Of a DNA stretch of 64,000 nt, positions 14,012-57,622 are shown piece by piece (position 1 is the stretch's first letter; each line of letters starts with the position of its first letter). The notes under the pieces were generated by a model. The model saw only the letters and a list, made by a program, of their open reading frames with translations, was not told the DNA's origin and ran no database searches. Both the position numbers and the translations under genes were made by a program. The stretch comes from Candidatus Latescibacterota bacterium. Lineage in GTDB: Bacteria; Latescibacterota; UBA2968; UBA8231. Location: contig OZ241889.1 in the NCBI GenBank assembly GCA_965203355.1, positions 2,912,001 through 2,976,000 on the forward strand, written 5' to 3'.

Positions 14012-14352
14012 TGTCTGAACATCACTCTGAACATCACGTCGTCCCGCTCAGGATCTACTTTCTGATCTTCTTCGCCCTGATGATCGGCACCATTATCACG
14101 GTGGCAGCGGCCTTCGTCAACCTGGGCTTTTTGAATACGCCGGTCGCCCTAATCATCGCGCTAGTAAAGGCATCGCTGGTCATTTTGTTCTTCATGCACG
14201 TGAAGTACAGCCCCAAGCTGGTTGGGCTTTTCGCGGTCGCGGGCTTCTTCTGGCTGTGCATCCTATTGGTCTTGACCATGCAGGACTACTACACGCGCGG
14301 CTGGGGCGAGGAAGCACCGGTAGAGTTTCTCAAGCAAGGGTCGTTTTTCTGA
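14011..14352 (+). CDS. coxD: Cytochrome c oxidase subunit IV (caa3 type)
   Basis: KASLVILFFMHVKY; ATG overlaps the coxC TAA. Confidence 0.9.
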   Translation: MSEHHSEHHVVPLRIYFLIFFALMIGTIITVAAAFVNLGFLNTPVALIIALVKASLVILFFMHVKYSPKLVGLFAVAGFFWLCILLVLTMQDYYTRGWGEEAPVEFLKQGSFF

Positions 14353-19937: not shown

Positions 19938-22900
19938 ATGTTAAAGTACACGCACACGCCGCTATTTTGGAGCAACCAAAAAGCATGGGCTTCGATGCAA
20001 TCAAAAAGCATGACAATCGCCCTTTTCTTGGGCGTCCTGAGCTATACATCCCTTTGGGGACAGAACATAGACTTTTCCCCACCTGATAAACCCGACGGCC
20101 CGGCCAAGCTAGAAAGTGCGCTGTGGGCGTTGGCCGCACCCCGAGCCGGCAAGCCAACTCGCGCTGTACAGGATACGGTCGTCGTCATCTTGGTTCCACA
20201 TCTTGGTCAAGGGTCGGCTTCGCTTGATACGTCGTCGCTGGCGGCACTGGGCGGGATGGTGCGCGCCCAGTCCAAGAGTCTGATGCGGGTTTCGGTTCCG
20301 GCGGCGTCGCTGCGGGCGGTTTCCGAGCTACCGGGGGTTCGCTTTGTTCGCCGGCCGCGTCGGCCGCATCCGAACCAGACTGTCAGCGAAGGGGTGCAAG
20401 TCACCAAAGCGCATGATAATCACCGCAATGGTGTGAGCGGCCAAGGGGCCAAGGTAGCGATTATTGATCTCGCATTTAAGGGGGCGGATCAATTAGGCTC
20501 AGAACTGCCGACGGATGTGAAGAATTTCGACTTTACCGGGGGCGGGATATACGCCTACGCCGGTTCTGAACTCGCTTCTGTCCACGGCACCGCTTGTGCC
20601 GAGATCATCCACGATATGGCTCCTGAAGCTGAACTCACGCTTCTGAAGGTAGGCGATCTCGTTGACGTTGAGAATGCCAAGGACTTTTGCATACGAGAGG
20701 GAATTGACATAATCAATCATTCCATAGCTTGGGCTGATGGCATTGTCGACGGCCGTGGGCGGGTCTGCGACATTGTAAATGACGCGGCTGACAACGGCAT
20801 CCTTTGGGTACAGGGATCGGGCAATACGGGCCACAGAAAATATTACGGAGGGGTATGGTCTGATTCCGATGATGACCGTTGGCACGACTTTGGCAGCCAA
20901 GACGACGAGCTCCTGTCGTTTAAAGCCGAGGCCGGGGATGATATACATGTTTTCTTGACTTGGGATGATTGGCCCATCTCCTACCAAGACTACGACCTGT
21001 ATCTCTATTTTGAGAAAGCCGACGGCGATTTAGAAGAAGTCGGCAAAAGTACCAATTTTCAATACACTTCCGGTGGCGAGCCTTATGAAGGCATCGAAAT
21101 AAAGGCACCAAAATCGGGGAACTATGGCATAGGGGTTTATTTCGGCAATCCGAACAATGTAAATGCCCAGCCTATGAAGCTAAAGATATTTATGTCTGGT
21201 TCCGATTTCGCAGAGTATGCGGTTACCGGGGGCAGTATCCTGAGTCCTGGCGACGCCAGAGGGGCTATGACCGTCGGCGCGATTCATTATAACGATTACG
21301 ACCTAGGTCGGATTGCAGATTACAGTTCCCGAGGGCCTACTGCCGATGGTCGCATCAAGCCCGACCTCGCCGCACCTACTGGAGCATCGACCGTTTCTTA
21401 TGGTGCCGGTGCCTTTTGGGGGACTTCCGCGGCGGGTCCCCACGTGGCCGGCGCGGCAGCGCTGATCAAGTCGGCGAATCCATCGTACTCGTACGCTCAG
21501 TTGTGGGACGCCCTGATCGCGGCAACGGTTGACATCGGACCGCCGGGCCGGGACAACGACAGCGGATACGGCAAACTCGTGCTGCCGATTATGCAAGCTG
21601 TCAGAAGCGACGATACGAATTCCGCGCCCACCAACGATGCGCCGCCCACCAATGATGCGCCGATCTCTTACGATGAGCCAATCTCTTACGATGAGCCAAT
21701 CACTTACGATGAGCCGATCACTTACGACGAGACGTTGAGCGAGAACATCACCTTGTCGGTGCGTCCGAGTGAGATCGAAGAGGACGCGGGGGAGACGACG
21801 GTTACGGTGACCGGGACGTTAGACGGCCAAGGGCTCGACGCGGATGCGACCCTCACGTTGGTCTTGGACCACGCCGCGGACCTGGCGGCGACGCGCGATG
21901 TGGACTATCTGGCGCGGCTGACGACGCTGACGATTCCGCGCGGTTCGGTGTCCGGGACCGCGACGATTGCGATCACCCCGCTCCCCGATGGGCAAGCCGA
22001 CACCCACGAGACGATCACGCTAACGCTGTTGACCGACGACCTCAAAAACCAAGCCGGCGAGACCCTCGCGGTACGGACCGCGGCGATCACGCTGATAGAT
22101 GACACGACTATGACGGATTCGGATGCGCCCGCCGACCTCGGCCGGCCTCGCTTCGCCGCGGGCCCGTTAGCCTTAGCCTTTGAAGCGACGAGGGGGCGGG
22201 CGTTTAGCGCGGTGTTGCCCGCCGCCACGGGCGAAGGGACGCTGACCTATAGCGTCTCGGCCGGGCTACCGGCCGGGCTGGCGTTTGACCCGGCCACCCG
22301 GACGATTGCCGGGACGCCAACCGCCGTGGGTATGGCTACGCTCGTCTATACGGTGCTCGATAGCGACGGCGACCGCGCCGCCCGAACCGTCACCCTCACG
22401 GTTCGGGAAGCCCAGCCGGTCGTGGGGGTCGCGAGTGTGCGGGCTTCGCCAGCGGTCGTGCGCGAAAACGGCGTGCCGACCGAAATCCGCGTTACGGCGA
22501 CGTTGGTGGGGGCGGCCCCGACAGCGGAGACGATTCGCTTCACGCTGGTGCCGCCAGCCAGCGGGACGATGGCCACCCGCAACGTGGATTACACCGCGAC
22601 ATGGGCGGGAACCGTCACCATCGCGGCCGGGGAGACGATGGGTTCGACAACGCTTTTCTTGTCGCCCATCGACAATGCGGCAACGGACGGTCATAAGTAT
22701 TTGGGGATCCGGGCGGCGGCTTCGGGCGGCTGGGGGCAGGTGGACCTGCGGATTTCCGACGACGAGACGGCCAGCACGGCGCTGGTGGTGTCGGTGCTGC
22801 CGAGCGCGATTAGCGAGTCGGCGGAATTGACGGAAGTGATGGTCATGGCTGCGTTGGACGGCCAGCCGTTGGCCACGGATGCGACGGTCGCCATCTCGAT

Positions 22901-24185
22901 TGACGCGGCTTCGAGTGCCACACGCGGTACGGACTACTCGGCCCGGTTCGATCCAGCCGTTACCATTGCGGCCGGTGCGCTTATGGGTTCGACGCGCTTT
23001 TTGATTGATCCGGTCGCCGATGGCTTGGCCGAAGGGGACGAGACGATCGTCCTCCACGCGAGAGGGCCGGGCTTGACGGCGGGTTCGGCGACGCTGGTGC
23101 TGACCGACGTGGACAGCGGCATGATGGACAGCGATGAGGAGAAGACGCTCTCCTTGGCTTTCGTCGAGGGAGCTTCGGTCGCCGCACACACCTATACGGC
23201 GGGCATGGCGATTACGCCGTTGGTCCTGCCGATGGCGATGGGCGGCGAGGGAGCCATCACGTACAGCGTGTCGGATTTGCCAGCCGGGCTGTCGTTTAAC
23301 GCGGCGACCCGGACGATTTCCGGGACGCCAGACGCGGCGACCGATGGGGCCGTTGAGGTCACCTACACGGCGACGGCTGGCGCCGAAAGCGTCTCGCTGA
23401 CGTTCACAATCACGGTCAACCCGATGCTGGACTTGAGCACGTTGTTCGATGTGTTCAACAACGGAGCCGGCAAGCCGGTGCCAGTGCGGGCCGGGCTGAA
23501 TGCGAATGCGCGGCTGTATCTGGATGCGCCGACAGCCCTGCCGAGCGTAGGTGAGGAGTTCGTCGTTAATGTGCGGTTGGCCGACTTCGTGGCGGTCAAA
23601 GGCTACGGCTTGCAGATAGCGTATGACGCCGACCAGCTAACTTTCGTCGAGGTTGCGAACCGATCCGTGCTAGAGGGTCACGCGTGGGCTACGCCGCAGG
23701 TGCTGGCCGAAGCTGGCGTGTTGACGGTAGCCACCCACGGCGATGTCGTTGCCGACGGCGAGCTAATGCTGCGCTTGGTCTTCCGTCCGACGACCGAGAT
23801 CGCGCACACAACCCTCGAAATCACCGACAACCAAACGTATGACCGGGCGTTGGGCTTCAACCGCTTGGCATTGCCCGCGCCGGTGGCATTACAGACGCGC
23901 CCGGCCGTGTTTTCGCTGGCGGCCAACTATCCGAACCCGTTCAATCCGCAGACGACGATTCAGTACGCGTTGCCGCAGGCGGCGGACGTGGGGCTGACGG
24001 TGTATAATGTACTGGGTCAGCCGATTCGGACGCTGGTCGCCGAGCATCAGGCGGCGGGTCGTTACGCGGTCGAGTGGGACGCGACCAACGACAGTGGCCA
24101 GAGCGTGTCGTCGGGGATGTACTTCTACCGCTTACAAGCGGGCGAAGCGTTCCTCGACATCAAAAAGATGCTACTGCTCAAGTAA
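19938..24185 (+). CDS. Secreted S8 (subtilisin-like) peptidase with Calx-beta-like, putative Ig (He_PIG), cohesin-like and FlgD/T9SS-type C-terminal domains; true start may be a later Met
   Basis: Catalytic VAIID / HGTACA / GTSAAGPHVAG; LPAGLAFDPATRTIAGTP Ig modules; C-terminal NYPNPFNP...SSGMYFYRL...KKMLLLK. Confidence 0.9.
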   Translation: MLKYTHTPLFWSNQKAWASMQSKSMTIALFLGVLSYTSLWGQNIDFSPPDKPDGPAKLESALWALAAPRAGKPTRAVQDTVVVILVPHLGQGSASLDTSSLAALGGMVRAQSKSLMRVSVPAASLRAVSELPGVRFVRRPRRPHPNQTVSEGVQVTKAHDNHRNGVSGQGAKVAIIDLAFKGADQLGSELPTDVKNFDFTGGGIYAYAGSELASVHGTACAEIIHDMAPEAELTLLKVGDLVDVENAKDFCIREGIDIINHSIAWADGIVDGRGRVCDIVNDAADNGILWVQGSGNTGHRKYYGGVWSDSDDDRWHDFGSQDDELLSFKAEAGDDIHVFLTWDDWPISYQDYDLYLYFEKADGDLEEVGKSTNFQYTSGGEPYEGIEIKAPKSGNYGIGVYFGNPNNVNAQPMKLKIFMSGSDFAEYAVTGGSILSPGDARGAMTVGAIHYNDYDLGRIADYSSRGPTADGRIKPDLAAPTGASTVSYGAGAFWGTSAAGPHVAGAAALIKSANPSYSYAQLWDALIAATVDIGPPGRDNDSGYGKLVLPIMQAVRSDDTNSAPTNDAPPTNDAPISYDEPISYDEPITYDEPITYDETLSENITLSVRPSEIEEDAGETTVTVTGTLDGQGLDADATLTLVLDHAADLAATRDVDYLARLTTLTIPRGSVSGTATIAITPLPDGQADTHETITLTLLTDDLKNQAGETLAVRTAAITLIDDTTMTDSDAPADLGRPRFAAGPLALAFEATRGRAFSAVLPAATGEGTLTYSVSAGLPAGLAFDPATRTIAGTPTAVGMATLVYTVLDSDGDRAARTVTLTVREAQPVVGVASVRASPAVVRENGVPTEIRVTATLVGAAPTAETIRFTLVPPASGTMATRNVDYTATWAGTVTIAAGETMGSTTLFLSPIDNAATDGHKYLGIRAAASGGWGQVDLRISDDETASTALVVSVLPSAISESAELTEVMVMAALDGQPLATDATVAISIDAASSATRGTDYSARFDPAVTIAAGALMGSTRFLIDPVADGLAEGDETIVLHARGPGLTAGSATLVLTDVDSGMMDSDEEKTLSLAFVEGASVAAHTYTAGMAITPLVLPMAMGGEGAITYSVSDLPAGLSFNAATRTISGTPDAATDGAVEVTYTATAGAESVSLTFTITVNPMLDLSTLFDVFNNGAGKPVPVRAGLNANARLYLDAPTALPSVGEEFVVNVRLADFVAVKGYGLQIAYDADQLTFVEVANRSVLEGHAWATPQVLAEAGVLTVATHGDVVADGELMLRLVFRPTTEIAHTTLEITDNQTYDRALGFNRLALPAPVALQTRPAVFSLAANYPNPFNPQTTIQYALPQAADVGLTVYNVLGQPIRTLVAEHQAAGRYAVEWDATNDSGQSVSSGMYFYRLQAGEAFLDIKKMLLLK
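21624..21731 (+). repeat. 18-bp coding minisatellite, six units (APTNDA PPTNDA PISYDE PISYDE PITYDE PITYDE)
   Basis: Direct reading, e.g. CCAATCTCTTACGATGAG / CCAATCACTTACGATGAG. Confidence 0.92.
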
Positions 24186-31868: not shown

Positions 31869-32898
31869 GCACGACCCCCAGCGCTTCGGCCGGCGACTCG
31901 ACGAGCACATCTACGGCCGCGGCGATATCTTCGAGCGCAAACTCGTGGGTGTAGAGCGGTTGGACGCGCAGCTTCCCGGCGGCTATGGCGCGCAGACACT
32001 CGGCTAGGTTGCGCTGCGTTGACCACTCGACCAAGACTCGGGGATACGCTTGGCCGCGCTCGTACGCTGGGTCGTGATAACCAGGACCGGTGCGCGCCGC
32101 ACTCCGCACATCCACATTGCCCAGCGCCGCTCCAAAACCATGCGTTACCTGCGCTCCCCCTACGAGGATAATGCGCCCCATGCGATGCGTATCCGGCGCT
32201 TGCTTTAGGCTCTGATAGATGGTTGCCAAGGCATTGCTGGCCTCGCCGCCAAAGGCAATGACGCCAAAATCCATGCCATACCCTTGGGTAAATGCCTCGG
32301 CCTGCTCGACCACGGCCTGCCCAGCCGGATCGACGACGCGCTCTATGCCCACCTGCCGGGCCAGGTCTCGACGGCGCGCAAAGTAATCGACTCCCAAGAC
32401 ATGGCAGCCGCTTAGCTGAGCGAATTGGGCCGTAAACTGACCGACCAAACCCAACCCGACCACGATCCCGTTTTCCCCGTACAAAGGAGCCGTGCGGCGC
32501 ACTGCGTGCAATCCAGTCGCTGCCAGATGCACAGACGCCGCCTCGGCAAAGCTAACGCCCTCGGGTATGGCCGCGCACAAGTTCTGCGGAACGCAGACCC
32601 AATCGGCGTGTAGGGCGTACCCACCCCCCATGCAGGCCACGCCCTGCCCCACCTCAAATTGCTCTACACCAGCCCCGATCGCCTCAACGACGCCGGCGTT
32701 GGTGTAGCCAAAAGGACGCGGGCCCCTGTCGGGTTGCGGTTTTTCTCGCATGGCCCCTACCCTCCCCAGTTCGGTTCCTGGGCTAATCAACGAGGCCTCC
32801 ACCTGCACTTTTACCTCGCCAGGGCCGAGAGCAGGCATAGTTTCCTCTATACATACTCCCTGACCACGGCCATCAATAGCCGCGACTTTCCTCTGCAT
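31849..32898 (-). CDS. Medium-chain (zinc-binding-type) alcohol dehydrogenase family protein
   Basis: SLISPGTE, PFGYTNAG, VVGLGLVG Rossmann motif, GPGYHDPAYE. Confidence 0.88.
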   Translation of the reverse strand: MQRKVAAIDGRGQGVCIEETMPALGPGEVKVQVEASLISPGTELGRVGAMREKPQPDRGPRPFGYTNAGVVEAIGAGVEQFEVGQGVACMGGGYALHADWVCVPQNLCAAIPEGVSFAEAASVHLAATGLHAVRRTAPLYGENGIVVGLGLVGQFTAQFAQLSGCHVLGVDYFARRRDLARQVGIERVVDPAGQAVVEQAEAFTQGYGMDFGVIAFGGEASNALATIYQSLKQAPDTHRMGRIILVGGAQVTHGFGAALGNVDVRSAARTGPGYHDPAYERGQAYPRVLVEWSTQRNLAECLRAIAAGKLRVQPLYTHEFALEDIAAAVDVLVESPAEALGVVLKPAHR

Positions 32899-32993
32899 CA
32901 GTACCTCCTGCTCGCGCTGGTTGCGCCCTCGTGGACTGCTGTATTACTTATACAACTCATGTTTAATATGTCTATTGCCCTATTCGAGGCGCT

Positions 32994-33761
32994 GTGAACG
33001 TCATCATTGCCGCAGTTTTAGGAGGCATCCTCTTGGTTTGGGGCGGGTTTTTGGGCCTGCTCCGCATTGCGGATCCCTTTGAGCGCAAACACGTGCTGAT
33101 CCTCGCGGCGTACACCACCCTCGTCGTCGGCTGCATTATGGGCTTGGTGCTCTTTATCAATCACGAGCAGCAAAAGCAGCACCGCTATCAGCTAGATGCG
33201 CAAATGGAGGACTTCTCCAATCGCCTCTCCGAGCTGAGCACCCGGCTCATTGGCCAGCTAGAAGAAAAAGCCAATCTGACCGCCTCTGAATTCGAGATCC
33301 GCACCCTCTTGCAAAACGAAAAGGATCACCACAAGCGCACCCGCAATCAACTAGCAACCCAAATAGATCACAACAACTCGCTGCAAAACAAAATGGAAGC
33401 CGAGCGCAAGGAGCGGCTGAGCTACCAATCCAGCATGGACCGCAAACTCGAAGAACGCTTCCGGCAGGAGGACTTGCGCTACCAAAACCTCGCCGACACC
33501 CAAAAGCGCTCCTTGGCAAATGTGCAGGCGCAGTTCGCCCCCCTCAACAACGAGTTGTCCCGTCTGCAACAACAAACCGCGACCTTGCAACGCAACCAGC
33601 AGGCGACCCTAGACAAAATAGCCGCCAGCCGCGAAACCCAAACGCTCTCAGTCCAAAAACTCGACGCGCTCGCCCGCAGCCTGAGTGCCCTGTACGACGA
33701 CTTGAACCGAACTATGGCCCAAGTTGATAGCCTATATCACAGAACATCGCCAACGCCTTAA
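32994..33761 (+). CDS. Hypothetical membrane protein: two N-terminal TM helices plus long coiled coil
   Basis: Two hydrophobic segments followed by about 200 aa of Q/E/L/R-rich heptads. Confidence 0.75.
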   Translation: MNVIIAAVLGGILLVWGGFLGLLRIADPFERKHVLILAAYTTLVVGCIMGLVLFINHEQQKQHRYQLDAQMEDFSNRLSELSTRLIGQLEEKANLTASEFEIRTLLQNEKDHHKRTRNQLATQIDHNNSLQNKMEAERKERLSYQSSMDRKLEERFRQEDLRYQNLADTQKRSLANVQAQFAPLNNELSRLQQQTATLQRNQQATLDKIAASRETQTLSVQKLDALARSLSALYDDLNRTMAQVDSLYHRTSPTP

Positions 33762-33771
33762 GGAGCTGACA

Positions 33772-34596
33772 ATGAAACGTACCCTCATTCCTTTCATCGC
33801 CCTGTTCCTTGCTGCCTGCACCAATAAGGAGCAAGAAATGATCCTGCTCCAATTGCAAAGCGACATGGTCCGCGCCAACGCCGCCATTGACTCGCTGACC
33901 TACTCGCTCGACGACTCCAACCGCTTGCTCGACGACATGCGGGCGCAAGTAGATAGCACCCAACAGGTCAACGACAAGCTCCTCGAAAACGTGCAAAAGC
34001 TCAACAAAGAGTTGCGGCACTGGAGTAAACTGGCCACCGAATACGAGCAGAATAATGAGCGGTTAAAAATCGAAATCAATCAGTTAAGGCAGGAAAAGCA
34101 AGCGGACCGTTACACCATCTCCCAGCTGCGCACCGAGACCGATCGCCTTAACGCCGAGTTGTTGGAAACCCACAGTAGCATCCGCCGCCAGAGCGATCAC
34201 ATCCGCCGCTTAGAGCAGGACTTGGCCGAAGCCAAGACCGAACTGGTCGAGGCCAAGTCCCAAATCGCCGAGCAAAACGCAGTGTACCTCTATGCTGCCA
34301 ACGAAACCCAACTCGTAGAACAGGGCTACCTCAAAACGCACCGCCCCTTTGGCCGGGGGTTCCGCAAGCAGTACGAATTAATTAAAAATATCCGCCCCGA
34401 CAGCCCAGGGGCCCAAGTCGCGCCTATTGGCCAAACCATCGCGCTACCAAGTGAAGTCGAGGCTCTCGTCGATCGCTACGGCAGGCTCAGGAAGGGGGAT
34501 GACTACGAAATGACGCGCAGCGACGCCGGCATACAGGTCGCTTTCCTCAACGAGTTAGCCGGTGGCACGGGCGTCTTGGCGATACTCAAGGAATAG
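33772..34596 (+). CDS. Coiled-coil lipoprotein with C-terminal globular domain
   Basis: AAGGAG RBS; MKRTLIPFIALFLAAC lipobox; heptads followed by NAVYLYAANETQLVEQGYL. Confidence 0.8.
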   Translation: MKRTLIPFIALFLAACTNKEQEMILLQLQSDMVRANAAIDSLTYSLDDSNRLLDDMRAQVDSTQQVNDKLLENVQKLNKELRHWSKLATEYEQNNERLKIEINQLRQEKQADRYTISQLRTETDRLNAELLETHSSIRRQSDHIRRLEQDLAEAKTELVEAKSQIAEQNAVYLYAANETQLVEQGYLKTHRPFGRGFRKQYELIKNIRPDSPGAQVAPIGQTIALPSEVEALVDRYGRLRKGDDYEMTRSDAGIQVAFLNELAGGTGVLAILKE

Positions 34597-34605
34597 CTTG
34601 GCCCC

Positions 34606-35025
34606 TCACCAAGTGTGGACATAGACCGCTGGGCGCACCTTCTCTCCGGTTTGGTCGGTCGAAAGCAGCGAGTCGGCAAACGATGCGTGTTTGGCCAACT
34701 GCTCGCGGCTGCCGCCTTTGAGAAATAAGTGCAAATTAGCCTCAGGTTCGGCGGCGAGGTCCCGCACCATGCGGCGGAAATCCCACTCGCTCAAGGGGCT
34801 GTCGATGGTGTAGCCATTGCGCGATAGCCCCAGGCCCGCGCTCGTGTAGAGCACGACCCGATCCCCAGGCTGTGGGTCGTGGCGATGCACCCGCCAAACG
34901 GGTTGCGTCGCGTTGAGAATCATAATGCCCAGGCTCAACATCAGCATCATAATGCCCAAGAAGAGTTCCTTGCTAATATCGTGCTCTTCAAACTCGGCGG
35001 CTTGGCGCTTGAGATAGCGGCTCAC
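34606..35025 (-). CDS. Atypical ExbD/TolR-like single-TM protein
   Basis: HDISKELFLGIMMLML TM near the N-terminus; alpha/beta periplasmic domain; overlaps the ExbB-like stop. Confidence 0.6.
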   Translation of the reverse strand: MSRYLKRQAAEFEEHDISKELFLGIMMLMLSLGIMILNATQPVWRVHRHDPQPGDRVVLYTSAGLGLSRNGYTIDSPLSEWDFRRMVRDLAAEPEANLHLFLKGGSREQLAKHASFADSLLSTDQTGEKVRPAVYVHTW

Positions 35026-35807
35026 AATTTTTTATTCCTCTCTCTGACCCAAGCGTCCTCCTGCCGGGCCAGCCGCTGGACCAAGTAGTCGGCGATTTTG
35101 CGCAGCGGCAAGTAGGCCAAGAGACCGACGAGCGTGGTCTTAAAAGCCAAAACCAAACCCTCGGCCATGGCGCTGAGTGCCTTAAAGGTCTGCGTGGCTT
35201 CGTCAATCTGACTCAATTCCTGCGCGGTCAGCAGGATACCGCAGACCGTGCCCAAGTAACCGTATAGGGGAATCCGCGCCAGATCCCGGCGCACATGCGT
35301 CAAAGGGTCGCCGAGAAAACCAACCAACTCATCTACTAACTCCTCGTCTCTGCTCTTGAGCTCGCTGTAGTCGGCTGCTTGGCCTTCCAATTCCGCTAGT
35401 TTTTCCATTCTCTTGCGGCCCAAGGTGTTAGCATCGAGCTCTCTTCCGCTCTCCCAAGTCTCCCAAGCCCGTCCCTCGCGCCGAAGGTGCAAATTAATGT
35501 AGGCCAAGCTCAACAGATGGCCACCAGCCGCCCAAGCGATCAGCACGTATGAGAAGCGGCCAATCCACGCAAAGGCACTGTCTAGCTGCGGATTGGTAAA
35601 GAGGTAATAAGCCGCCAGTCCCCCGACGATTGCCCCAGTCAGCAAGCCTATAAAGCTGGCTAGGTACTGTAGGCGGGGTAACTTCAGAGCGTGCGATTCG
35701 TCCTGTCGGCGCATACGTCGGGCTCGGCGCAGGTGCAAATAGCTAACGCTAACGCCGCAGGCCAGCACCAACAGGATGCGGCTGACGAAAACTAATTCGT
35801 CGTTCAA
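35022..35807 (-). CDS. MotA/TolQ/ExbB proton-channel family protein with three N-terminal TMs
   Basis: IPLYGYLGTVCG and EGLVLAFKTTLVGL match the family hairpin; TTG start overlapping the upstream TGA inferred. Confidence 0.85.
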   Translation of the reverse strand: MNDELVFVSRILLVLACGVSVSYLHLRRARRMRRQDESHALKLPRLQYLASFIGLLTGAIVGGLAAYYLFTNPQLDSAFAWIGRFSYVLIAWAAGGHLLSLAYINLHLRREGRAWETWESGRELDANTLGRKRMEKLAELEGQAADYSELKSRDEELVDELVGFLGDPLTHVRRDLARIPLYGYLGTVCGILLTAQELSQIDEATQTFKALSAMAEGLVLAFKTTLVGLLAYLPLRKIADYLVQRLARQEDAWVRERNKKL

Positions 35808-37000
35808 GAGATCTTGAAGAGTTTCCACCACTGCCAACTTATCACCCCCAGATAGAACAGCAGGCCCGTTGCAATTCCCCACAGCGCCCACGGCGTGCTG
35901 CGGATACTGTAGATGCCCTGAGCCGACGATTGCTGTCCACCCATTCCCGCTTCCCTAGCCCGTCCATCCCCTTTGGTTGAACCACGGGCAGCCGGGGGTT
36001 TATAATCTCGGCGACGATCTGCTTCCCCACGCGCTGTGCCGACCATGGTACGCTGCGACGCGACATGGCTCGTACCTTTAAGCGTTTGTTTTGGTGGTAA
36101 GATCAAGGCGCGTTCCTCGGCGGGCAGGGCCTCGGCCCAAGCGAGCAATTTTTTTGCCGCACCTATGCTTTCGACTTCGGCCAATTTGCTCGCTTTCCCG
36201 AGGGAAAAAGCCAGCCGCCCGCGGACAAATCCCTCGTAGAGCACGTCCTGGGTGGGGCGGCGGCGCACGCGGAGTTTTTGCGCCAATTCATCGCGTTGCT
36301 TTTGCAGATGCACCAGACGGCTGACGACCCTATGAGTCTCCATGGGCTGGTGCGACACATTGCTGACCACACCTCCGAGCGGCCGACGACGGGCCGCGCG
36401 GGCTAATTGTGCGGCGTCGAACTGGGTCTCTAATTCGACCTCGCCAAACAGTGCCGTCCCCCAGATGACTTCGGCTCCGGGAATGTCGGGTAAGCTGTGG
36501 TTGTAAAAACGCGGCTCGGCCCGCTGGCCAGCGACCCACCACTGGCCAGTGCCGGTAGCCAGCACCTGGCGCAAGCGGCCGCGGCCATCTTGCAAATACA
36601 AACCAGCCATAAAGCCGCTTTCGACTCGGTCTGTGTCCCAGCAATGGGCGCGCAAGACATTGGACTCGCGCAGGTACACGACGGGAATTTCGACTCGGAT
36701 CGGAGTCAAACGCGTCTCCCCGATCCGCTGTCCATTGAGGAACAGCTCGGCTTCGTCGTCGGCCCAAAATATTAGTACCAGTCTGGAATTGGCTGGCAAT
36801 AGCCGACTGCCTTCCTTTCGCTTTGCCAGCTCGCGCAGATGGTCCCCGCCATAGAGACGGACCAAGGTGTCGATGCTGGCGGACACTTGGTTGTATTGTT
36901 GTCTCAGTGCCACCACATCGTCAGCCATAGCCGTAGCAGGCCAGCCGACTCCGTATGCCGCCCAAGCCAACCCACACATCCATTGCCCATAGCCGTTCAT
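35804..37000 (-). CDS. Exported protein with jelly-roll/carbohydrate-binding-like domain and C-terminal TM anchor
   Basis: Signal peptide ending ATAMA; WADDEAELFLNGQRIG; C-terminal WALWGIATGLLFYLGVISW; ATGA overlap with the SDR gene. Confidence 0.7.
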   Translation of the reverse strand: MNGYGQWMCGLAWAAYGVGWPATAMADDVVALRQQYNQVSASIDTLVRLYGGDHLRELAKRKEGSRLLPANSRLVLIFWADDEAELFLNGQRIGETRLTPIRVEIPVVYLRESNVLRAHCWDTDRVESGFMAGLYLQDGRGRLRQVLATGTGQWWVAGQRAEPRFYNHSLPDIPGAEVIWGTALFGEVELETQFDAAQLARAARRRPLGGVVSNVSHQPMETHRVVSRLVHLQKQRDELAQKLRVRRRPTQDVLYEGFVRGRLAFSLGKASKLAEVESIGAAKKLLAWAEALPAEERALILPPKQTLKGTSHVASQRTMVGTARGEADRRRDYKPPAARGSTKGDGRAREAGMGGQQSSAQGIYSIRSTPWALWGIATGLLFYLGVISWQWWKLFKIS

Positions 37001-37767
37001 ATATTGGACTTGGATTGCCCCCCATCGACATTGATGCAGGCACCGGTCACCCATTTCGCCCGGTCGGATGCCAAAAAGGCCACTACATCGGCCACTTCCT
37101 CCGGGGTGCCAAAGCGACCAAAAGGTATATTGGCGTCGATAAAGGCCTGGATTTGAGCTGGATTTTCCTTCATCCGCCGCTCCCAACTTCCCCCAGGAAA
37201 GAGAATGGAGCCTGGAGCCACAGTATTGACGCGGATGTTCTTTTTTGCCGCTTCAATCGCCAAGTTGGCCCCTAGGCTAATAAGCGCTGCTTTGGCGGCG
37301 TTATAGGAGATAGGCCCGCCGGTTTCGCGGCCAAAAATCGAAGAAATGTGGACGATGCTGCCGCCCCCACGTGCTGCCATTAAGGGAATCGCCGCCCGGC
37401 TCACCCGCACGGCGGAAAGAAAGCTCAAATTGATGATGTCGTTCCACTCGGCATCGTCGATCTCGACAAAGGGGGTCCACTTAGAGCCACCGACATTATT
37501 TACGAGAATGTCTAGCCCGCCAAAGCGACCTCTCGCCGCCTCCACCACAGTGATCGCGCCTTCCGGCGTCGTCATATCTTGCGCGGTCGCCTCTACCTCT
37601 GCGCCTGCATTTGCTAAGTCAGCCGCCGCGTCCGCCAGCGCGTCCGCATCGCGCGCGCAGATGCAAAGCCGGGCACCTTCGGCGGCCAAGGCGGCGGCGA
37701 TGCGCTTGCCAATGCCGCGGCTAGCCCCGGTCACCAAGGCGACTTTGTCTTTGAGTCCTAGATCCAA
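36997..37767 (-). CDS. SDR-family oxidoreductase
   Basis: TGASRGIG, LVNNVG, YNAAK, VDGG. Confidence 0.93.
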   Translation of the reverse strand: MDLGLKDKVALVTGASRGIGKRIAAALAAEGARLCICARDADALADAAADLANAGAEVEATAQDMTTPEGAITVVEAARGRFGGLDILVNNVGGSKWTPFVEIDDAEWNDIINLSFLSAVRVSRAAIPLMAARGGGSIVHISSIFGRETGGPISYNAAKAALISLGANLAIEAAKKNIRVNTVAPGSILFPGGSWERRMKENPAQIQAFIDANIPFGRFGTPEEVADVVAFLASDRAKWVTGACINVDGGQSKSNI

Positions 37768-50653: not shown

Positions 50654-53600
50654 TTAAAAGACCAAGCGTCCACGCAACAGGACGCCGTGTTCAGCGGCAC
50701 TGGCCATGCGTTGCCAGCGTGTGCTCTCAAGGCTCACAGACATCGACGAGTCCACCTCAAAGCGCGTACCTAAGCGCAACTGCATTCGCTTTGGCGCTTG
50801 AGTCATTCCGCTGTACACAGTGTACACTCCCCGCCCACCGGGCGCGGCTAAACCGTAACCGACCTCTGCTTTGAGTTGACCTTGCGCGTTCATAGCACCC
50901 CGGTCCGCTATCTCGGCTACGCTGCGCTCCCACAGCGTCAGGCTGTTCGTATGCGTACCGTAGGTCGGCATCACCCGCAACGACAACCCGCGCCCACCGG
51001 TGCCAGCCGAGCGCTGGAGCAAGAGATGTGCACCCCATTCTTGGTGCTCAACCTCGTCGTCGCCGTCACTGACCAGACTCCGCGCCATAGCTTCCAGCGT
51101 GAAACCACCGCCTTCATAGCGCAAGCCACCGCCAATTTCTACACCGGCCCCGGTCTGTCCGTCGCCACCATCTTGGCGCAGAGCAACCTCTAGCTGGGGT
51201 GTCATCTGCCCATCCATGCCCACATCGTAAGCATAGGAGCCTTTGAGTGCCAACCTCAAGCGGTTAGCACTCACGGTTTGCTCGGCAATCCGGTTTCCTT
51301 TTCCATCCTCGACTTCTCCACCCTCGATTTCGACCTGTGCAACAGTAGCAGCAGCCTTGATCCGTAGCTGAGTCGGCCCGCTGGAGAGTAAGTCACCGCT
51401 AGCCCCTACACTTGCAGTCCGCAGCGATGTATCGCTCGACTGCTGGCCTACGGTTCCCTGTTCGTCGTCAATCTCGATGTCGCCGCGCCCTAAGCCCGCC
51501 GTCAACCATACTCCAAGCCGCCCTGGCGAGAACCCGACGTAAGGATGCAGGCTCAACATGCGGGGCGTATAAGTACCGTCAACTCGCTCTTCGCCGAGCA
51601 ACGGGGCGGAATAATCGAACGATCCTTGGGCCCACGATAGAGCTAACCCGGTTAGCACTTCGGCACCTGGCCTGGCATCCAAACCAATCTGAGCACGGGT
51701 TAGGTTGCCCTCCCAATCAAGTGAACCGTCGTCGCTAGACATTTGGCCGTAGTCTCCCCGGCCCCAAAATGTGGGACTACCGGGACAAAGAATGCATCCT
51801 CTACCAAAACCAAACGGCGTTGCAAAAGACGAGCCATTCATAACCTGTGCTAGATTAACCGGACGATTCTCGAATATCCGGCCAGACTGAATCATGTTGT
51901 AAAGAGTGGACTCAGCAGCGAAGCGAAAAGACCTATTCTTATCGCCAACTCTGTCCATCTGCTCAAGGCGATCTTCGATGGCGCGATTCGTTCCATCGGC
52001 AATAGCCAATGCGTACTTGGACAAGATCTGTTCATTGAGTTCCGCAAAACGATCCGTAGCCGATTCTTCCACCCGGACCTCAAAGCTAAGAATAGCGGCG
52101 TCCTCAGCAGTCATATTGGCGTCGGTATCGTGGGCCGTATATGTCAACGTATACGTTCCAACCTCTGTCGGTGCCCCCGAAAGCATCGGCGACATGGGGT
52201 TGGGGTCAAAGGTCAGACCCGGAGGCACGTTATCTAGAGTATAAGTCAACTCGCCGAACACAGCCTCGCCGTCTGGATTTAGCGAGAGCAAATTGCCGCC
52301 CGAAGCCAGAGGCAACACCAAGTCTTCAATCGCCTCACCTTCTATGTACGTCTGGTTGGCCACGTCCCCGCTAAAGCTGGGCGCACCATCTACCGTTATG
52401 TGAAAGGTTAACTCAGCCGAATCGCCATCGATATCCTCCACCTGATAGATCAAGCGATATACCCCAGTGTCCGTCGGCGTACCCGAAAGCGTCCGAGATG
52501 CAGCGTCGAAATTCAGACCCGGCACATTCATATCTAAACTATATGCCAACTCACCGTTGCCGCCCGCCGCCACTGGTAATTCCCACGGATTCATCGCCTC
52601 ATTCTGACGCAAAATTCGATCCTCAATGGTCGCGTCAAAAAAGGTAGGTGTACCGTCGACTGTTAGAAAGAAGCTCAACTCAGCCGAGTCGCCATCTTCA
52701 TCTTCTACCCGATACGTCAATTCATATCCCTCGGCAGGATGTGACACATTAAGCTCTGGCGTACCCGAAAGCGTCCGAGACGTGGGATCGAACGCCAGAC
52801 CCGGAGGCAAGTTCTCCTCATTCAAACTATACGTCAATTCGCCGTTGCCGCCCAAAGCCGCAGGTAACTCCAACGGAGCCATCTCCTCCCCTTCAGGAAT
52901 CCACTGATTCGTAACGGATCCTTCAAAGAAGGGCATACCATTCACCGAGATCGTGAAGCTCAACTCAGCCGAATCACCATCTTCATCCGCCACCCGATAC
53001 GTCAACGCATATGCCTCGGGAGAATATGACACATTAGGCGACAACTCACCCGAAATCGTCTGGGACGTGGCATCAAATGCCAGACCCGGAGGCAACTCAC
53101 CGTCCAAGGTATAGGTCAACACCACATTCCCACCTACCGCCGTCGGCAGAGATAAGCTCACCTCATCGCCTGCGGTGTACATCTGGTCTTCCACGACCTG
53201 ATCGCCGAAGCTAGGCATACCATTCACCACAATCGTGAAGGTCAATTCCGCCGAATCGCCATCCTCATCCACGCCCCGATACGTCAACACACATCCCTCG
53301 AAGTACAACACATCCGTCGGCAGCGTACCCGAAATCGTCTGGGACGTGGGATCAAACGTCAACCCCGGATGCAACTCACCGTCCAAGGTATAGGTCAATG
53401 CCACATTCCCGCCTACCGCCGTCGGCAGAGATAAACTCACCTCATCGCCTGCGGTGTACATCTGGTCTTCCACGACCTGATCGCCAAAGCTGGGCATGCC
53501 ATTCACCACAATCGTGAAGGTCAACTCTGCCGAATCGCCATCCACATCTGCCACCTGATAAGTCAGCGGATAGCCCGCAGCATACAACATATCAGCCGCC

Positions 53601-55561
53601 AGATCCCCCGAAAGCGTCCGAGACGCGGCATCAAATGTCAGACCCGACGGCAAATCGCCATCTAGGCTATATGTCAACGCCTCATTACCACCCGAAGCCG
53701 AGGGCAATTCCCAGCTCTCTATCGACGTCCCCGCGGAAAAAGTAATTTCATTCGCCACGGTTCCATCGAAGCTGGGCATACCATTCACCGAGATACTGAA
53801 GCTCAGTTCCACAGCATCGCCATCCACGTCCGCCACCCGATACGTCAACGGATAGCCCGCGGCAGCATATAGTACATCAGTCGACAGATGACCCGCTATC
53901 GTCTGAGACGCGGGATCAAACGTCAGACCCAGAGGCAAATCGCCATCCAAACTATACGTCAATGCCACATTCCCACCTGCCGCCATCGGCAGACCTAAGA
54001 TCACCTCATCGCCTGCGGTGTACATTTGGTCTTCCACGACCTGATCGCCAAAACTCGGCATAGCAGCTATCACAATCGCGTAGCTCAACGTCGCATCATC
54101 GCCATCCACATCCGCCACCCGATACGTGAACGCATATGACTCGTCGTACAGTACATCCGCAGGCGGCACACCCGCTATCGTCCGAGCATCGGCATCAAAC
54201 GTCAGACCCAGAGGCAAATCGCCGTCCAAACTATACGTCAATGCCACATTCCCACCTGCCGCCATCGGCAGACCTAAGATCACCTCATCGCCCGCTGCGT
54301 ACATTTGGTCTTCCACGACCTGATCGCCAAAACTCGGCATAGCAGCTATCACAATCGCGAAGGTCAACTCTGCCGAATCGCCATCGGAATCCACCGCCCG
54401 ATACGTGAACGCATATGACTCGTCGTACAGCACATCCGCAGGCGGCACACCCGCTATCGTCCGAGCATCGGCATCAAACGTCAGACCCAGAGGCAAATCG
54501 CCGTCCAAACTATACGTCAATGCGTCGGTGGACCGACCTACTGGCAACTCCCAAGGCTGTTTTATCTCTTCGCCTGCAGTAAAGGTCGTTTGACCCGCAG
54601 CGACCGCTGCAAAGGTAAGTTCCACTGAGATCGTAAAGGCCAATTCCTCCCCGTCGCTCTCCTCCATATTGGTATCGGAATCTTCTACCCGATAGGTCAT
54701 TCCATACGTCCCAGCTACAGTCGGCGTACCCGAAAGCGTCCGAGACGCAGCATCAAACGTTAGACCTGGCACCTCCGGCGACAAGCTATATCTCGGCGGT
54801 GCCTCATATTCTCCCACCGAAGCCATAGGCAGTTCCAGCGTTCCTATATCCTCGCCTGTCTGGTATGACTGATCGGCAACCATCGCCCCCTCAAAGCTCG
54901 GCCTTGTATCGACTTCTACCTCAAATTTCAACGTGGCCGTATCGCCGTCGGCATCCATTACTTCGTAAGTCATCAAGAAAATAGCCACTTCCGAAGGCGT
55001 ACCCGAAAGCGTCCGAGACGCAGCATCAAATTCCAAACCCGGTGGCAAGGGACTTAGAGCATATTTCAACTCGCCGTTACCACCCGAAGCCACAGGCAAC
55101 TCTAAAGCCTCTATCGCCAACCCGGCCGAGAACATCTGATTGGCAACCGTAGCACCGCCAAAGCTCGGAGCTACATCCTCTTCATTTACTAAAATATTGA
55201 ATTTCAACGTGGCTGTAGCACCGTCGGCATCCATTACTTCGTAAGTCATTAAGAAAATAGCCACTTCCGAAGGCGTACCCGAAAGCGTCCGAGACGCAGC
55301 ATCAAATTCCAAACCCGGTGGCAAGGGACTTAGAGCATATTTCAACTCGCCGTTACCACCCGAAGCCACAGGCAACTCTAAAGCCTCTATCGCCAACCCG
55401 GCCGAGAACATCTGATTGGCAACCGCCGCATCGCCAAAGCTCGGCACATCCTGGGCTTCAGCCGCCGGAGCCGACATCAAAGTGGTCGCCAGAAAGAACA
55501 TACTCAGGCAGGACAGCAATCTATTCCGAACAAGTTTGTTACTAACTACACAACCGCTCAT
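50654..55561 (-). CDS. Large autotransporter (T5SS) with about 12 putative Ig (He_PIG-like) passenger repeats
   Basis: GGAGG RBS; signal peptide ending AEA; repeated LPxGLxFDxxSRTLSGTP; C-terminal barrel (FWGRG...PYVG...LRGRLVF). Confidence 0.9.
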   Translation of the reverse strand: MSGCVVSNKLVRNRLLSCLSMFFLATTLMSAPAAEAQDVPSFGDAAVANQMFSAGLAIEALELPVASGGNGELKYALSPLPPGLEFDAASRTLSGTPSEVAIFLMTYEVMDADGATATLKFNILVNEEDVAPSFGGATVANQMFSAGLAIEALELPVASGGNGELKYALSPLPPGLEFDAASRTLSGTPSEVAIFLMTYEVMDADGDTATLKFEVEVDTRPSFEGAMVADQSYQTGEDIGTLELPMASVGEYEAPPRYSLSPEVPGLTFDAASRTLSGTPTVAGTYGMTYRVEDSDTNMEESDGEELAFTISVELTFAAVAAGQTTFTAGEEIKQPWELPVGRSTDALTYSLDGDLPLGLTFDADARTIAGVPPADVLYDESYAFTYRAVDSDGDSAELTFAIVIAAMPSFGDQVVEDQMYAAGDEVILGLPMAAGGNVALTYSLDGDLPLGLTFDADARTIAGVPPADVLYDESYAFTYRVADVDGDDATLSYAIVIAAMPSFGDQVVEDQMYTAGDEVILGLPMAAGGNVALTYSLDGDLPLGLTFDPASQTIAGHLSTDVLYAAAGYPLTYRVADVDGDAVELSFSISVNGMPSFDGTVANEITFSAGTSIESWELPSASGGNEALTYSLDGDLPSGLTFDAASRTLSGDLAADMLYAAGYPLTYQVADVDGDSAELTFTIVVNGMPSFGDQVVEDQMYTAGDEVSLSLPTAVGGNVALTYTLDGELHPGLTFDPTSQTISGTLPTDVLYFEGCVLTYRGVDEDGDSAELTFTIVVNGMPSFGDQVVEDQMYTAGDEVSLSLPTAVGGNVVLTYTLDGELPPGLAFDATSQTISGELSPNVSYSPEAYALTYRVADEDGDSAELSFTISVNGMPFFEGSVTNQWIPEGEEMAPLELPAALGGNGELTYSLNEENLPPGLAFDPTSRTLSGTPELNVSHPAEGYELTYRVEDEDGDSAELSFFLTVDGTPTFFDATIEDRILRQNEAMNPWELPVAAGGNGELAYSLDMNVPGLNFDAASRTLSGTPTDTGVYRLIYQVEDIDGDSAELTFHITVDGAPSFSGDVANQTYIEGEAIEDLVLPLASGGNLLSLNPDGEAVFGELTYTLDNVPPGLTFDPNPMSPMLSGAPTEVGTYTLTYTAHDTDANMTAEDAAILSFEVRVEESATDRFAELNEQILSKYALAIADGTNRAIEDRLEQMDRVGDKNRSFRFAAESTLYNMIQSGRIFENRPVNLAQVMNGSSFATPFGFGRGCILCPGSPTFWGRGDYGQMSSDDGSLDWEGNLTRAQIGLDARPGAEVLTGLALSWAQGSFDYSAPLLGEERVDGTYTPRMLSLHPYVGFSPGRLGVWLTAGLGRGDIEIDDEQGTVGQQSSDTSLRTASVGASGDLLSSGPTQLRIKAAATVAQVEIEGGEVEDGKGNRIAEQTVSANRLRLALKGSYAYDVGMDGQMTPQLEVALRQDGGDGQTGAGVEIGGGLRYEGGGFTLEAMARSLVSDGDDEVEHQEWGAHLLLQRSAGTGGRGLSLRVMPTYGTHTNSLTLWERSVAEIADRGAMNAQGQLKAEVGYGLAAPGGRGVYTVYSGMTQAPKRMQLRLGTRFEVDSSMSVSLESTRWQRMASAAEHGVLLRGRLVF
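52040..55450 (-). repeat. Array of about 276-282-bp Ig-module repeats, several near-identical
   Basis: Offsets of 276 bp (55436 vs 55160) and 279 bp (54405 vs 54126); outer limits approximate. Confidence 0.88.
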
Positions 55562-56704: not shown

Positions 56705-57622
56705 TCATTCAAAAGCGCGACTACTCAAGTAGCGCAATCCGCTGTCGCAGAGGATGGTCGCGACCCGAGCATTTCTGCCCATCTCCCGAGCGACTTGGGA
56801 GGCGATGTAGGCGTTGGCTCCTGCTGAAATTCCCACCAAAAGCCCTTCCTCTCGAGCCAAGCGGCGGGCCATTTCATACGCGTCGTCGTCAGTAATGACC
56901 CTCACCTCGTCGATAATCTCGCGGTTGAGAATTGGTGGTACAAAACCCGCGCCAATACCTTCTATATAACTGAATCCAGCCCTCCCGCCTGAAAGCACAG
57001 GCGACCCTGCAGGCTCGATGGCGATGACCCGCACTGTGGACATCGCTTCCTTAAGTACTTCGCCGACGCCAGTCAACGATCCCCCAGTACCCACTCCCGC
57101 TACAAAGGCATCGATCCGGCCATCTAGCTGTTCTAATATCTCACGGCCGGTCGTGCGGCGATGTACTTCGGGGTTCGCTGCATTCATAAACTGCTGTGGC
57201 AAAAAGTAATCTGGATGCTCGCGCTTGAGTTCAAGTGCTTTGTCAATAGCTCCGCGCATACCCTCGACCGCTGGCGTCAACACAACTTCGGCACCGTACG
57301 CCTGCATCTGTAAGCGGCGCTCGCGGCTAGCCGTGTCGAACATGGTGACGATGAGTTTGTAGCCCTTGTAGGCAGCCACCATGGCCAAGCCAATGCCGGT
57401 ATTACCACTAGTGGGTTCAATGATCGTGCCGCTTTTAGCCAGCAGCCCTTGCTTTTCGGCGGCTTCAATCATGGCTAGGGCGATACGGTCCTTGACACTG
57501 CCACCGGGATTGGTCACCTCCAACTTGCCCCATACCTCGGCAGCATCCTCCCCGACCACTCGGCTGAGGCGGACTATAGGCGTAGCCCCGATTAACTCCA
57601 GCACATTGTGAGCGCGTTTCAT
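56705..57622 (-). CDS. cysK: Cysteine synthase A
   Basis: NPGGSVKDRIA, EPTSGNTG, QQFMNAAN, GVGTGGS, IEGIGAGFVP. Confidence 0.9.
   Translation of the reverse strand: MKRAHNVLELIGATPIVRLSRVVGEDAAEVWGKLEVTNPGGSVKDRIALAMIEAAEKQGLLAKSGTIIEPTSGNTGIGLAMVAAYKGYKLIVTMFDTASRERRLQMQAYGAEVVLTPAVEGMRGAIDKALELKREHPDYFLPQQFMNAANPEVHRRTTGREILEQLDGRIDAFVAGVGTGGSLTGVGEVLKEAMSTVRVIAIEPAGSPVLSGGRAGFSYIEGIGAGFVPPILNREIIDEVRVITDDDAYEMARRLAREEGLLVGISAGANAYIASQVAREMGRNARVATILCDSGLRYLSSRAFE

Follow-up and report, generated by a model that had tools for sequence, protein, structure and literature searches.

The P1-P2-P3 locus

In a stretch of 64,000 nucleotides (nt) from the genome of Candidatus Latescibacterota bacterium (contig OZ241889.1, positions 2,912,001 to 2,976,000), hereafter the window, three genes of the minus strand follow one another with overlapping stop and start codons. 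They encode an exported protein with a beta-sandwich domain (P1), a channel subunit of the MotA/TolQ/ExbB family (P2) and a small protein with a single transmembrane (TM) helix (P3), and are considered here as a candidate for an ion-driven membrane motor. Their limits, given in numbers of amino acids (aa) for the products, are as follows.

35804-37000, minus strand: P1, 398 aa, exported protein, ends in TGA; placed from the open reading frame (ORF) and the sequence
35022-35807, minus strand: P2, 261 aa, ends in TGA; channel subunit of the MotA/TolQ/ExbB family
34606-35025, minus strand: P3, 139 aa, GTG start; bitopic protein

In the window the P1 stop and the P2 start share 4 nt (TTGA), and so do the P2 stop and the P3 start (GTGA). 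The start of P2 was set at TTG in position 35807, not at GTG in position 35891 of the mechanical ORF list, because conservation in the alignment of 79 homologous ORFs begins there; across these aligned P2 homologues the start codon overlapping the P1 stop is TTG, ATG or GTG. With this correction both overlaps are in place, and an earlier reading of this DNA made from its letters alone (the sequence-only reading) was therefore right in describing overlapping stop and start codons in all three genes. The motifs quoted there (WADDEAELFLNG, GYLGTVCG, AFKTTLVG and HDISKELFLGIMMLML) were likewise all found in the ORFs. The first ATG of P1 overlaps the stop of an upstream short-chain dehydrogenase/reductase (SDR) gene (ATGA, 36997-37000). 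In close relatives P1 starts at the second Met (MCWLAWA..., near 36979), and since several of them can use only this one, the true start of P1 in the window may also be near 36979. The scan of region 32700-37400 for promoters and terminators gave nothing above shuffled expectation.

Conservation and distribution

A scan of one genome per GTDB species returned 98 encoding stretches, from which 80 loci were kept. All of them come from metagenome-assembled genomes (MAGs) of Latescibacterota type, although some are labelled Gemmatimonadota and one Planctomycetota. P3 was found in 80/80, P2 in 79/80 and P1 in 75/80 loci, and every miss of P1 or P2 coincides with a contig end (L021, L048, L049, L065, L077); hence, where sequence exists, P2 is present in 79/79 and P1 in 75/75. 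At the aligned starts, which are approximate in distant loci, the overlap of 4 nt was registered at 41 of the 75 P1-P2 junctions and at 36 of the 79 P2-P3 junctions, while most others are within a few tens of nt. Recurrence of the trio in all 80 loci, wherever sequence exists, therefore means a conserved operon and not a chance arrangement. Thus the sequence-only reading, which had treated the three genes as one module, stands in this respect: the trio is conserved and its synteny is kept in 80 Latescibacterota-type loci.

The surroundings are far less constant. Other neighbours in the window (SDR, Na/Ca exchanger, amidohydrolase, dehydrogenase, creatininase and a major facilitator superfamily protein) are common to only 21-42 loci, and the SDR gene is not conserved beside the trio in distant clades. 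Genes upstream of P1 are clade-specific and metabolic (SDR, enolase superfamily), with a tetratricopeptide repeat (TPR) gene as the exception in 20 loci; a search for a gene that is conserved before P1 in every clade found none. The window itself is a housekeeping region of the chromosome with genes for alternative complex III, cytochrome oxidase, argininosuccinate synthase, malate dehydrogenase, LepA, aspartyl-tRNA synthetase and a sigma-70 factor. The locus occurs across the phylum at an identity of 60-96%.

In a collection of 5.8 billion protein clusters P3 has 217 homologues at E<=0.01. Among the 120 matches listed they are 134-151 aa long, 62-95% identical, named, if at all, "hypothetical protein", and originate from MAGs labelled Latescibacterota or Gemmatimonadetes. 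The search of 1.84 billion (1.84e9) cluster representatives with the P3 profile gave 11 matches, including one full-length 50%-identity cluster; the rest were fragments or chimeras (P0122, P0124, P0131) and one spurious armadillo/HEAT-repeat protein (P0130). No match to P3 was found in the plasmid and phage collections. For P1, 327 relatives were found, and among the 120 listed none has a Pfam domain or an informative name. These data are best explained by a chromosomal, vertically inherited trio of core-gene character, confined to one phylum.

P2, the channel subunit

P2 exceeds the gathering score of Pfam family PF01618 (MotA_ExbB) with 37.4 bits against 22.9 (E 2.5e-9). It was aligned by hhalign to TolQ of E. 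coli with Prob 91% (E 1e-6) and to ExbB with Prob 72% (E 3.4e-5), and a profile built from 48 family members found E. coli TolQ (8odt, E 0.007) among the chains of the Protein Data Bank (PDB). Judged by these profile comparisons, P2 is a bona fide member of the MotA/TolQ/ExbB family. It would not be classed as TolQ or ExbB proper: its scores remain below the equivalog cut-offs, the Glu of the last TM helix is absent and the predicted topology is not that with three TM helices.

By hydropathy P2 has TM segments 5-23, 52-70, 88-106 and 217-235. One more, 180-198, lies below the hydropathy threshold and was assigned through the alignment to TM2 of TolQ, so that the number of five TM helices is derived by homology. 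From the sequence-only reading of P2 as a five-TM protein of the MotA/TolQ/ExbB family, the family assignment is therefore retained, while hydropathy accounts for four of the helices and the fifth is taken from relatives. About 70 residues between TM3 and TM4 form the cytoplasmic domain, and the basic loop after TM1 suggests an N-out, C-in orientation.

35247-35249, minus strand: codon of P2 Thr187 (TM4), which aligns with TolQ Thr145 and ExbB Thr148
35133-35141, minus strand: codons of P2 Lys223-Thr224-Thr225 (TM5); Thr225 aligns with TolQ Thr178 and ExbB Thr181

The hairpin of TM4 and TM5, including the channel threonines, is the most conserved part of P2. Position 187 is Thr in 79/80 sequences (the window and 79 loci), the remaining one having a gap in a truncated ORF, and Leu220, Thr224 and Thr225 are invariant (80/80). 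Both threonine motifs were thus rightly described as retained from the channel. Lys223 stands opposite I176 of TolQ and L179 of ExbB.

P3, the small bitopic subunit

P3 is, as it was first described, a protein of 139 aa with one TM helix. Its N-terminal tail is cytoplasmic; after the TM helix (approximately residues 21-39) come the conserved linker PVWRVHxHDPxxGD and, in the periplasm, a small domain of alpha/beta type. The AlphaFold2 (AF2) model, with a predicted local distance difference test (pLDDT) score of 78, contains helices 2-40, 80-90 and 107-120 and strands 56-61, 65-68, 98-104 and 134-138, so that the elements after the TM helix come in the order beta-beta-alpha-beta-alpha-beta. The periplasmic domains of TolR and ExbD have the same order. 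In Foldseek comparisons with the PDB, the top probability and template modelling score (TM-score) were those of TolR 5by4 (0.91, TMt 0.50) and of the ExbD periplasmic dimer 8pek (0.77, TMt 0.51). The proposed ExbD/TolR-like architecture thus has weak support from the model, with TM-scores of 0.5 and no match at E<=1e-3. P3 matches no Pfam, NCBIfam or PADLOC family. It is likely to work like ExbD/TolR because of its architecture, size, gene position and weak fold match; its membership in this family is not demonstrated by sequence profiles.

34954-34983, minus strand: P3 His15-Asp16-Ile17-Ser18-Lys19-Glu20-Leu21-Phe22-Leu23-Gly24, polar cluster at the cytoplasmic end of the TM helix
34966-34968, minus strand: codon of P3 Glu20, candidate ion-binding residue

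Thirteen positions of P3, namely H15, D16, S18, K19, E20, F22, L23, G24, N38, P42, W44, R45 and D55, are identical in 81/81 sequences. The TM stretch contains no acidic residue, and the only invariant acids in the cluster are Asp16 and Glu20 at the cytoplasmic edge of that stretch. Glu20 may simply stand in for the canonical Asp.

P1, the anchored beta-sandwich protein

The AF2 model of P1 (pLDDT 79, predicted TM-score 0.68) starts with a signal-like segment at the N-terminus, followed by helix 21-59, a beta-sandwich (73-219), helix 221-246 and a C-terminal TM helix (371-397), connected by linkers that are of low confidence or disordered and carry conserved short motifs. It confirms, at the level of a model, the jelly-roll between helices and the C-terminal TM helix expected from the sequence.

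36344-36784, minus strand: P1 beta-sandwich (jelly-roll), residues 73-219, block pLDDT 91-97
35810-35890, minus strand: P1 C-terminal membrane anchor, residues 371-397, AF2 helix with pLDDT of about 89-94 and a very short tail after it

In the beta-sandwich the acidic and aromatic motifs FWADDEA, TRLTP, CWDTD-VESG and PDIP are invariant. All aligned relatives of P1 have a hydrophobic segment at the C-terminus; that of the window copy scores below the Kyte-Doolittle threshold of 1.5 because it is rich in Trp. The model thus indicates that P1 is anchored in the inner membrane and periplasmic, and is not a protein of the cell surface.

No Pfam, NCBIfam or PADLOC family was assigned to P1; across its family Pfam gave sub-threshold DUF4982 in 7/47 members (best E 0.024) and other noise. 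Since P3 fits no described family in these collections either, the suggestion of an undescribed family holds for the small subunit and for the jelly-roll partner. Foldseek found nothing at E<=1e-3 for P1, and its leads were a calcium-dependent lectin of the fungus Pleurotus (6t1d, probability 0.94), calcium-dependent modules of carbohydrate-binding module (CBM) type 60/36 (2xhh, 0.82; 2xfd, 0.72) and the sugar-binding N-domains of glucuronidases of glycoside hydrolase family 2 and of rhamnosidases. The Atlas searches, with scores of 0.78 and 0.88, also provided leads only, among them Bac_rhamnosid_N (0.78, on 14% of members). From the partner proposed earlier, a glycan-binding protein of the surface, the surface location is thus given up, and glycan binding is kept as a hypothesis at the level of a fold lead. 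Co-folding of P2 and P3 with residues 27-398 of P1 gave a score for P1 of 0.58, and the control with an unrelated protein in place of P2 gave 0.65, which provides no verdict on binding.

Genes around the trio

Two genes of the plus strand converge on the trio, and in some lineages one more gene precedes it.

33772-34596, plus strand: convergent neighbour 1, coiled-coil protein of 274 aa with lipobox FLAAC; its C-terminal part, about 100 aa, is a globular domain
32994-33761, plus strand: convergent neighbour 2, directly upstream of neighbour 1, 255 aa with TM segments 3-21 and 34-52 and a coiled coil of about 190 aa
L022:3024-4049 (plus), L035:2904-3968 (plus), L023-L033, L037, L040, L050, L057, L058, L071 and L080: loci with the TPR gene

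The stop of neighbour 1 is 9 nt away from that of P3. This gene adjoins the trio in 67/80 loci, including clades that share no other neighbour; in distant clades it has a plain N-terminal TM anchor instead of the lipobox, and Pfam gives for its family only generic coiled-coil matches, including DUF3450 in 2/27. Neighbour 2 adjoins in 65/80 loci and matches no family of Pfam, NCBIfam or PADLOC. In 20 loci the exported TPR protein (340-355 aa) is encoded immediately before P1 and on its strand, by a gene that adjoins the P1 start or overlaps it, and two of three such proteins tested matched TPR_19 with 29.8-29.9 bits at a cut-off of 25. The coiled-coil pair, with neighbour 1 as an accessory, and the TPR protein of some lineages probably belong to the same envelope machine. 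In the 13 loci without the adjacent coiled-coil pair (for instance L044:7019-8356, minus strand, and neighbours), unrelated genes lie downstream of P3; they encode an ATPase (AAA_21/AAA_15), a dienelactone hydrolase and an oxidoreductase of the pyridine-nucleotide disulphide type.

The sequence-only reading had noticed no TonB/TolA, OmpA, flagellar or ZorCDE gene nearby, and the domain search agrees with it: at E<=1e-5 the 53 other ORFs of the window gave no domain of TonB, TolA, Pal, OmpA, flagellar or Zor proteins. With TolR, ExbD and TolA of E. coli as queries, phmmer gave nothing at E<0.05 in the window or in the 80 loci.

Elsewhere in the window, a long cluster of respiratory genes on the plus strand (2088-14352) encodes a multihaem cytochrome c, Fe-S and NrfD-like subunits and ActD (alternative complex III), followed by SCO1 and by subunits II, I, III and IV of cytochrome c oxidase. 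Two large proteins are of surface type: one of 1635 aa with He_PIG/Ig-like repeats and an autotransporter beta-domain (50654-55561, minus strand), the other a subtilase of 1415 aa with He_PIG and FlgD-Ig-like domains (19938-24185, plus strand). At 56705-59433 (minus strand), genes for a ThiS-like sulfur carrier, a JAB-domain protein and two pyridoxal-phosphate-dependent (PALP) enzymes stand in a row, which resembles a cluster for cysteine biosynthesis of the CysO/Mec type with a sulfur carrier.

A probable variant of the Ton/Tol-type motor

We consider it fairly probable that the trio is an ion-driven membrane motor varying the Ton/Tol type, which is confined to one phylum and equipped with a novel output partner. 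This reading builds on P2 belonging to its family and keeping the channel threonines, on three genes that are translationally coupled and strictly co-occur, and on the polar cluster of P3, which is invariant and has its acid at the cytoplasmic end of the TM helix. In such a motor the outer ring would be made of P2, most likely as a pentamer, and would enclose a dimer of TM helices from P3, the 5:2 plan of rotary motors. Protons would pass Thr187 and Thr225 and titrate Glu20 of P3 acting in the role of the canonical Asp, and this passage would drive movement of P2 relative to P3. The TolR/ExbD-like periplasmic domain of P3 and its conserved linker would engage P1, which, being anchored beside the motor by its C-terminal TM helix, would extend its lectin/CBM-like beta-sandwich, carried by helical stalks, in the direction of the cell wall or the outer membrane. 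Given this position and the stalked beta-sandwich, P1 would serve as the force-receiving or anchoring element, as TonB, TolA or an OmpA-like domain does elsewhere. Our guess for the physiological role of the module is envelope maintenance, because it consists of core genes in housekeeping surroundings.

Several observations speak against such a motor. The likeness of P2 to TolQ/ExbB in hhalign extends over no more than the two final TM helices and a portion of the cytoplasmic domain, its scores are far below the equivalog cut-offs of NCBIfam (23.8 against 135.35 for TIGR02805 and 15.9 against 221 for TIGR02796), and Leu220 occupies the position of TolQ Glu173 and ExbB Glu176. For P3, no Foldseek match reached E<=1e-3; TolR and ExbD came with E-values of 0.13-0.24, similar to those of many unrelated alpha/beta proteins. 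Pfam ExbD (PF02472) was matched by 0/40 members of the P3 family at E<=10, the P3 profile gave no ExbD, TolR or MotB against PDB sequences, only a chance nitrogenase match (E = 2), and hhalign assigned Prob 0.2% to TolR, 4.2% to ExbD and 2.9% to the joint alignment of ExbD and TolR. A homologue search started from E. coli ExbD brought in no protein below 86% identity, which kept the ExbD profile shallow; a deep ExbD/TolR profile might score P3 better. Glu20 is at the very edge of the hydrophobic stretch beside Lys19, not clearly in the middle of the membrane like the canonical Asp; passages of a 2022 review (PMC9389320) place the conserved Asp of MotB, TolR and AglQ/S "mid-way across the membrane". 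Fold matches of P1 are weak, with E of about 0.02 and a low TM-score for the whole chain. The 13 loci without the adjacent coiled-coil pair form one clade of the P2 tree, and the TPR gene is found neither in the window and the loci closely related to it (L001-L020) nor in the SDR-less clade; the pair and the TPR protein may thus not be obligatory parts. Finally, the stoichiometry, the ion flow and the contact with P1 given above are what we infer for the trio.

A more specific version of the motor can be offered tentatively, as a minority option. The trio would then be a third envelope machine driven by the proton motive force beside Ton and Tol, in which a Glu-based motor of the MotA/ExbB type, with a ring of five-TM subunits and an orphan axle, passes force to the C-terminally anchored P1 of calcium/glycan-binding type and acts, together with the coiled-coil pair and in some lineages the TPR protein, on the cell wall or the outer membrane.

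Alternative explanations

Among the alternatives, the one that survives best denies P3 the role of an ExbD/TolR-type axle and takes the trio for a scaffold or a sensor, in which a MotA/ExbB-like protein has lost its motion driven by ions. It would agree with a P3 that has no sequence homology to any B-subunit family, weak fold similarity and no clearly mid-membrane acidic residue. We nevertheless regard it as rather unlikely: the channel threonines and the TM4-TM5 hairpin are exactly what is most conserved in P2, and the TM helix of P3 with its flanking polar cluster is invariant in 81 sequences, as would be expected for a working ion path. Gene order also argues for a motor, as the A-then-B arrangement of subunits with overlapping stop and start is that of the Mot, Exb and Tol operons.

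The second alternative accepts the motor and concerns the way it binds ions. It was proposed in the sequence-only reading that the site is rewired, with Gly24 replacing Asp and a pair between the Lys in TM5 of P2 and the Glu of P3 giving another ion or mechanism. The ungapped HDI register does set ExbD Asp25 opposite Gly24, with Glu20 four residues earlier; hhalign reproduced this register, without significance. With the last charge on the cytoplasmic side as the starting point, Gly24 follows Asp16 after 8 residues in P3, and the same number is found from E15 to D23 in TolR and from D17 to D25 in ExbD. Gly24, Lys19 and Glu20 are all invariant, and the Glu of ExbB/TolQ is replaced by Leu220. 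However, the register with Gly at the Asp position depends on alignments with Prob of 3-4% (4.2% for ExbD), and the count from the periplasmic end puts Glu20 there: the next polar residue follows 18 residues after it, compared with 18 for TolR Asp23 and 19 for ExbD Asp25. We favour this second, periplasmic-side register, with Glu20 as the equivalent of Asp, because it needs no gap inside the TM helix.

The proposed Lys-Glu pair fares no better. At position 223 of P2 the 80 sequences differ (K 45, Q 33, A 1, R 1), and this position covaries with position 216 seven residues before it in the same helix (35139-35162, minus strand). In the tree of 77 rows, from which rows with fewer than 200 aligned residues were left out, 216 is acidic (Glu or Asp) in 38/44 rows with Lys223 and in 1/31 with Gln223, these counts being phylogenetically non-independent; Gln223 is mostly accompanied by Gly216. 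Such covariation points to a partner within P2, not to Glu20 of P3, and suggests that Lys223 forms a salt bridge with an acidic residue of P2, either inside the helix or between subunits. A rewired ion site is accordingly judged improbable, and the motor with Glu20 in the place of Asp is preferred.

We give a similarly low chance to the idea that the trio, like GldLM or AglRQS, drives some process at the cell surface, for instance gliding, adhesion or secretion, with P1 passing the motion to a surface structure. There is precedent for 5:2 motors driving periplasmic shafts (described in passages of PMC9389320), P1 combines stalk-like helices with a domain of binding type, and long periplasmic coiled coils are encoded alongside. 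Yet no genes for type IX secretion (T9SS), Glt or pili came up, either in the window or in the conserved portion of the 80 loci, and the periplasmic part of P3 is small, of ExbD size, not a GldM-like shaft.

An anti-phage module of Zorya type, that is a MotAB-like sensor with effector partners, is very improbable, since the weak PADLOC matches of ZorA to P2 (E 0.008 and 0.016) are confined to the MotA domain, those of the coiled-coil neighbours to ZorA tail regions are generic, with similar scores for SMC, JetC and LmuB, no PADLOC model is matched by P1 or P3, no ZorC, ZorD or ZorE-like nuclease or helicase or other defence gene is nearby, no plasmid or phage copies were found, and the locus, syntenic with housekeeping genes and 60-96% identical across the phylum, shows the pattern of core genes and not of a mobile island; thus nothing points to phage defence.

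Comparison with known motors

Conventional motors appear to coexist with the trio. About 6 kb downstream of it one locus contains a canonical TolQ/ExbB-like gene, cut by the locus end (L023:11857-12417, plus strand; phmmer E 9e-16 to E. coli TolQ), so that these organisms also have motors of the usual kind. Single-cell genomes of Latescibacteria are reported to encode conventional TonB/ExbB/ExbD, according to passages of PMC4454575. For both reasons the trio looks like an additional system beside the conventional ones. Full-text searches of the literature gave no description of the P1-P2-P3 trio, supplements being outside their scope; Latescibacterota has 0 occurrences in the main text of a 2025 survey of MotAB relatives (PMC12505986), and passages of a 2025 paper on the evolution of TonB and TolA do not mention the phylum.

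The Tol and Ton systems are the closest in plan. TolQ and ExbB share with P2 the last two TM helices and both channel threonines; P3 (139 aa) is of the size of TolR (142 aa) and ExbD (141 aa), and in each of the three a single TM helix at the N-terminus precedes a small alpha/beta domain in the periplasm, in P3 according to its model. The B-type gene likewise follows the A-type gene, in the trio with overlapping stop and start codons, an order and overlap established for Mot, Exb and Tol operons (see also passages of PMC9389320). CpoB is encoded with Tol-Pal (passages of PMC12204202), and the trio is accompanied by coiled-coil and TPR periplasmic proteins, in which we see analogy, not homology. 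The differences are no less clear. No TonB, TolA, TolB or Pal is encoded near the trio in the window, where no TonB_C or TolA domain was found in 53+5 ORFs. TolQ and ExbB have three TM helices against the five predicted for P2, and the Glu of their last TM helix is Leu in P2. P3 differs from TolR and ExbD by Glu instead of Asp, placed at the membrane edge, and has no detectable sequence homology to them. P1 has its membrane anchor at the C-terminus and contains a beta-sandwich, whereas TonB and TolA are anchored by the N-terminus, and TonB continues with a Pro-rich spacer and the TonB C-terminal domain.

From the flagellar stators MotAB and PomAB, whose B subunit binds peptidoglycan through an OmpA-like domain, the trio is set apart by the absence of an OmpA or MotB domain in P3 and of flagellar genes in the window. 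Relatives of MotAB are divided in the 2025 survey into flagellar ones and "generic ion transporters" (GIT), the latter comprising 272/379 of those analysed, many of unknown function (main text of PMC12505986). The trio resembles GIT in that P2 is a MotA-family protein with a short cytoplasmic domain and the B subunit has no OmpA-like domain; a B subunit of the P3 type, in contrast, would escape annotation as MotB or ExbD. If P3 is such a subunit, censuses of motors based on annotation miss B subunits that have diverged beyond profile detection.

With GldL-GldM the trio would share the organisation of a 5:2 motor having a periplasmic protein as output instead of TonB. Key charges in that motor are a Glu on GldL and an Arg on GldM, unlike the canonical Asp. 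GldM is a long shaft of four domains and P3 is small, no T9SS genes are found nearby, and P2 is clearly MotA/ExbB by Pfam, while GldLM are described as being without obvious sequence homology to MotAB (passages of PMC9389320). ZorAB of Zorya is another MotA/ExbB-type pair outside motility and transport, with the weak ZorA matches to P2 mentioned above, but the trio lacks ZorCDE genes, P2 has no long tail, and the gene set is a core chromosomal one.

Three "hypothetical" core genes of a widespread uncultured phylum thus receive a likely role. Should the proposed motor be real, it would stand out by its orphan axle, by a Glu where other motors have the canonical Asp and by a partner new in structure, and the trio would be a natural test of how variable the ion-binding site can be. 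Ton, Tol, Mot, Gld, Agl and Zor represent one motor principle with different outputs, and a further version used throughout a phylum would widen the repertoire of ways in which energy of the inner membrane is delivered to the envelope.

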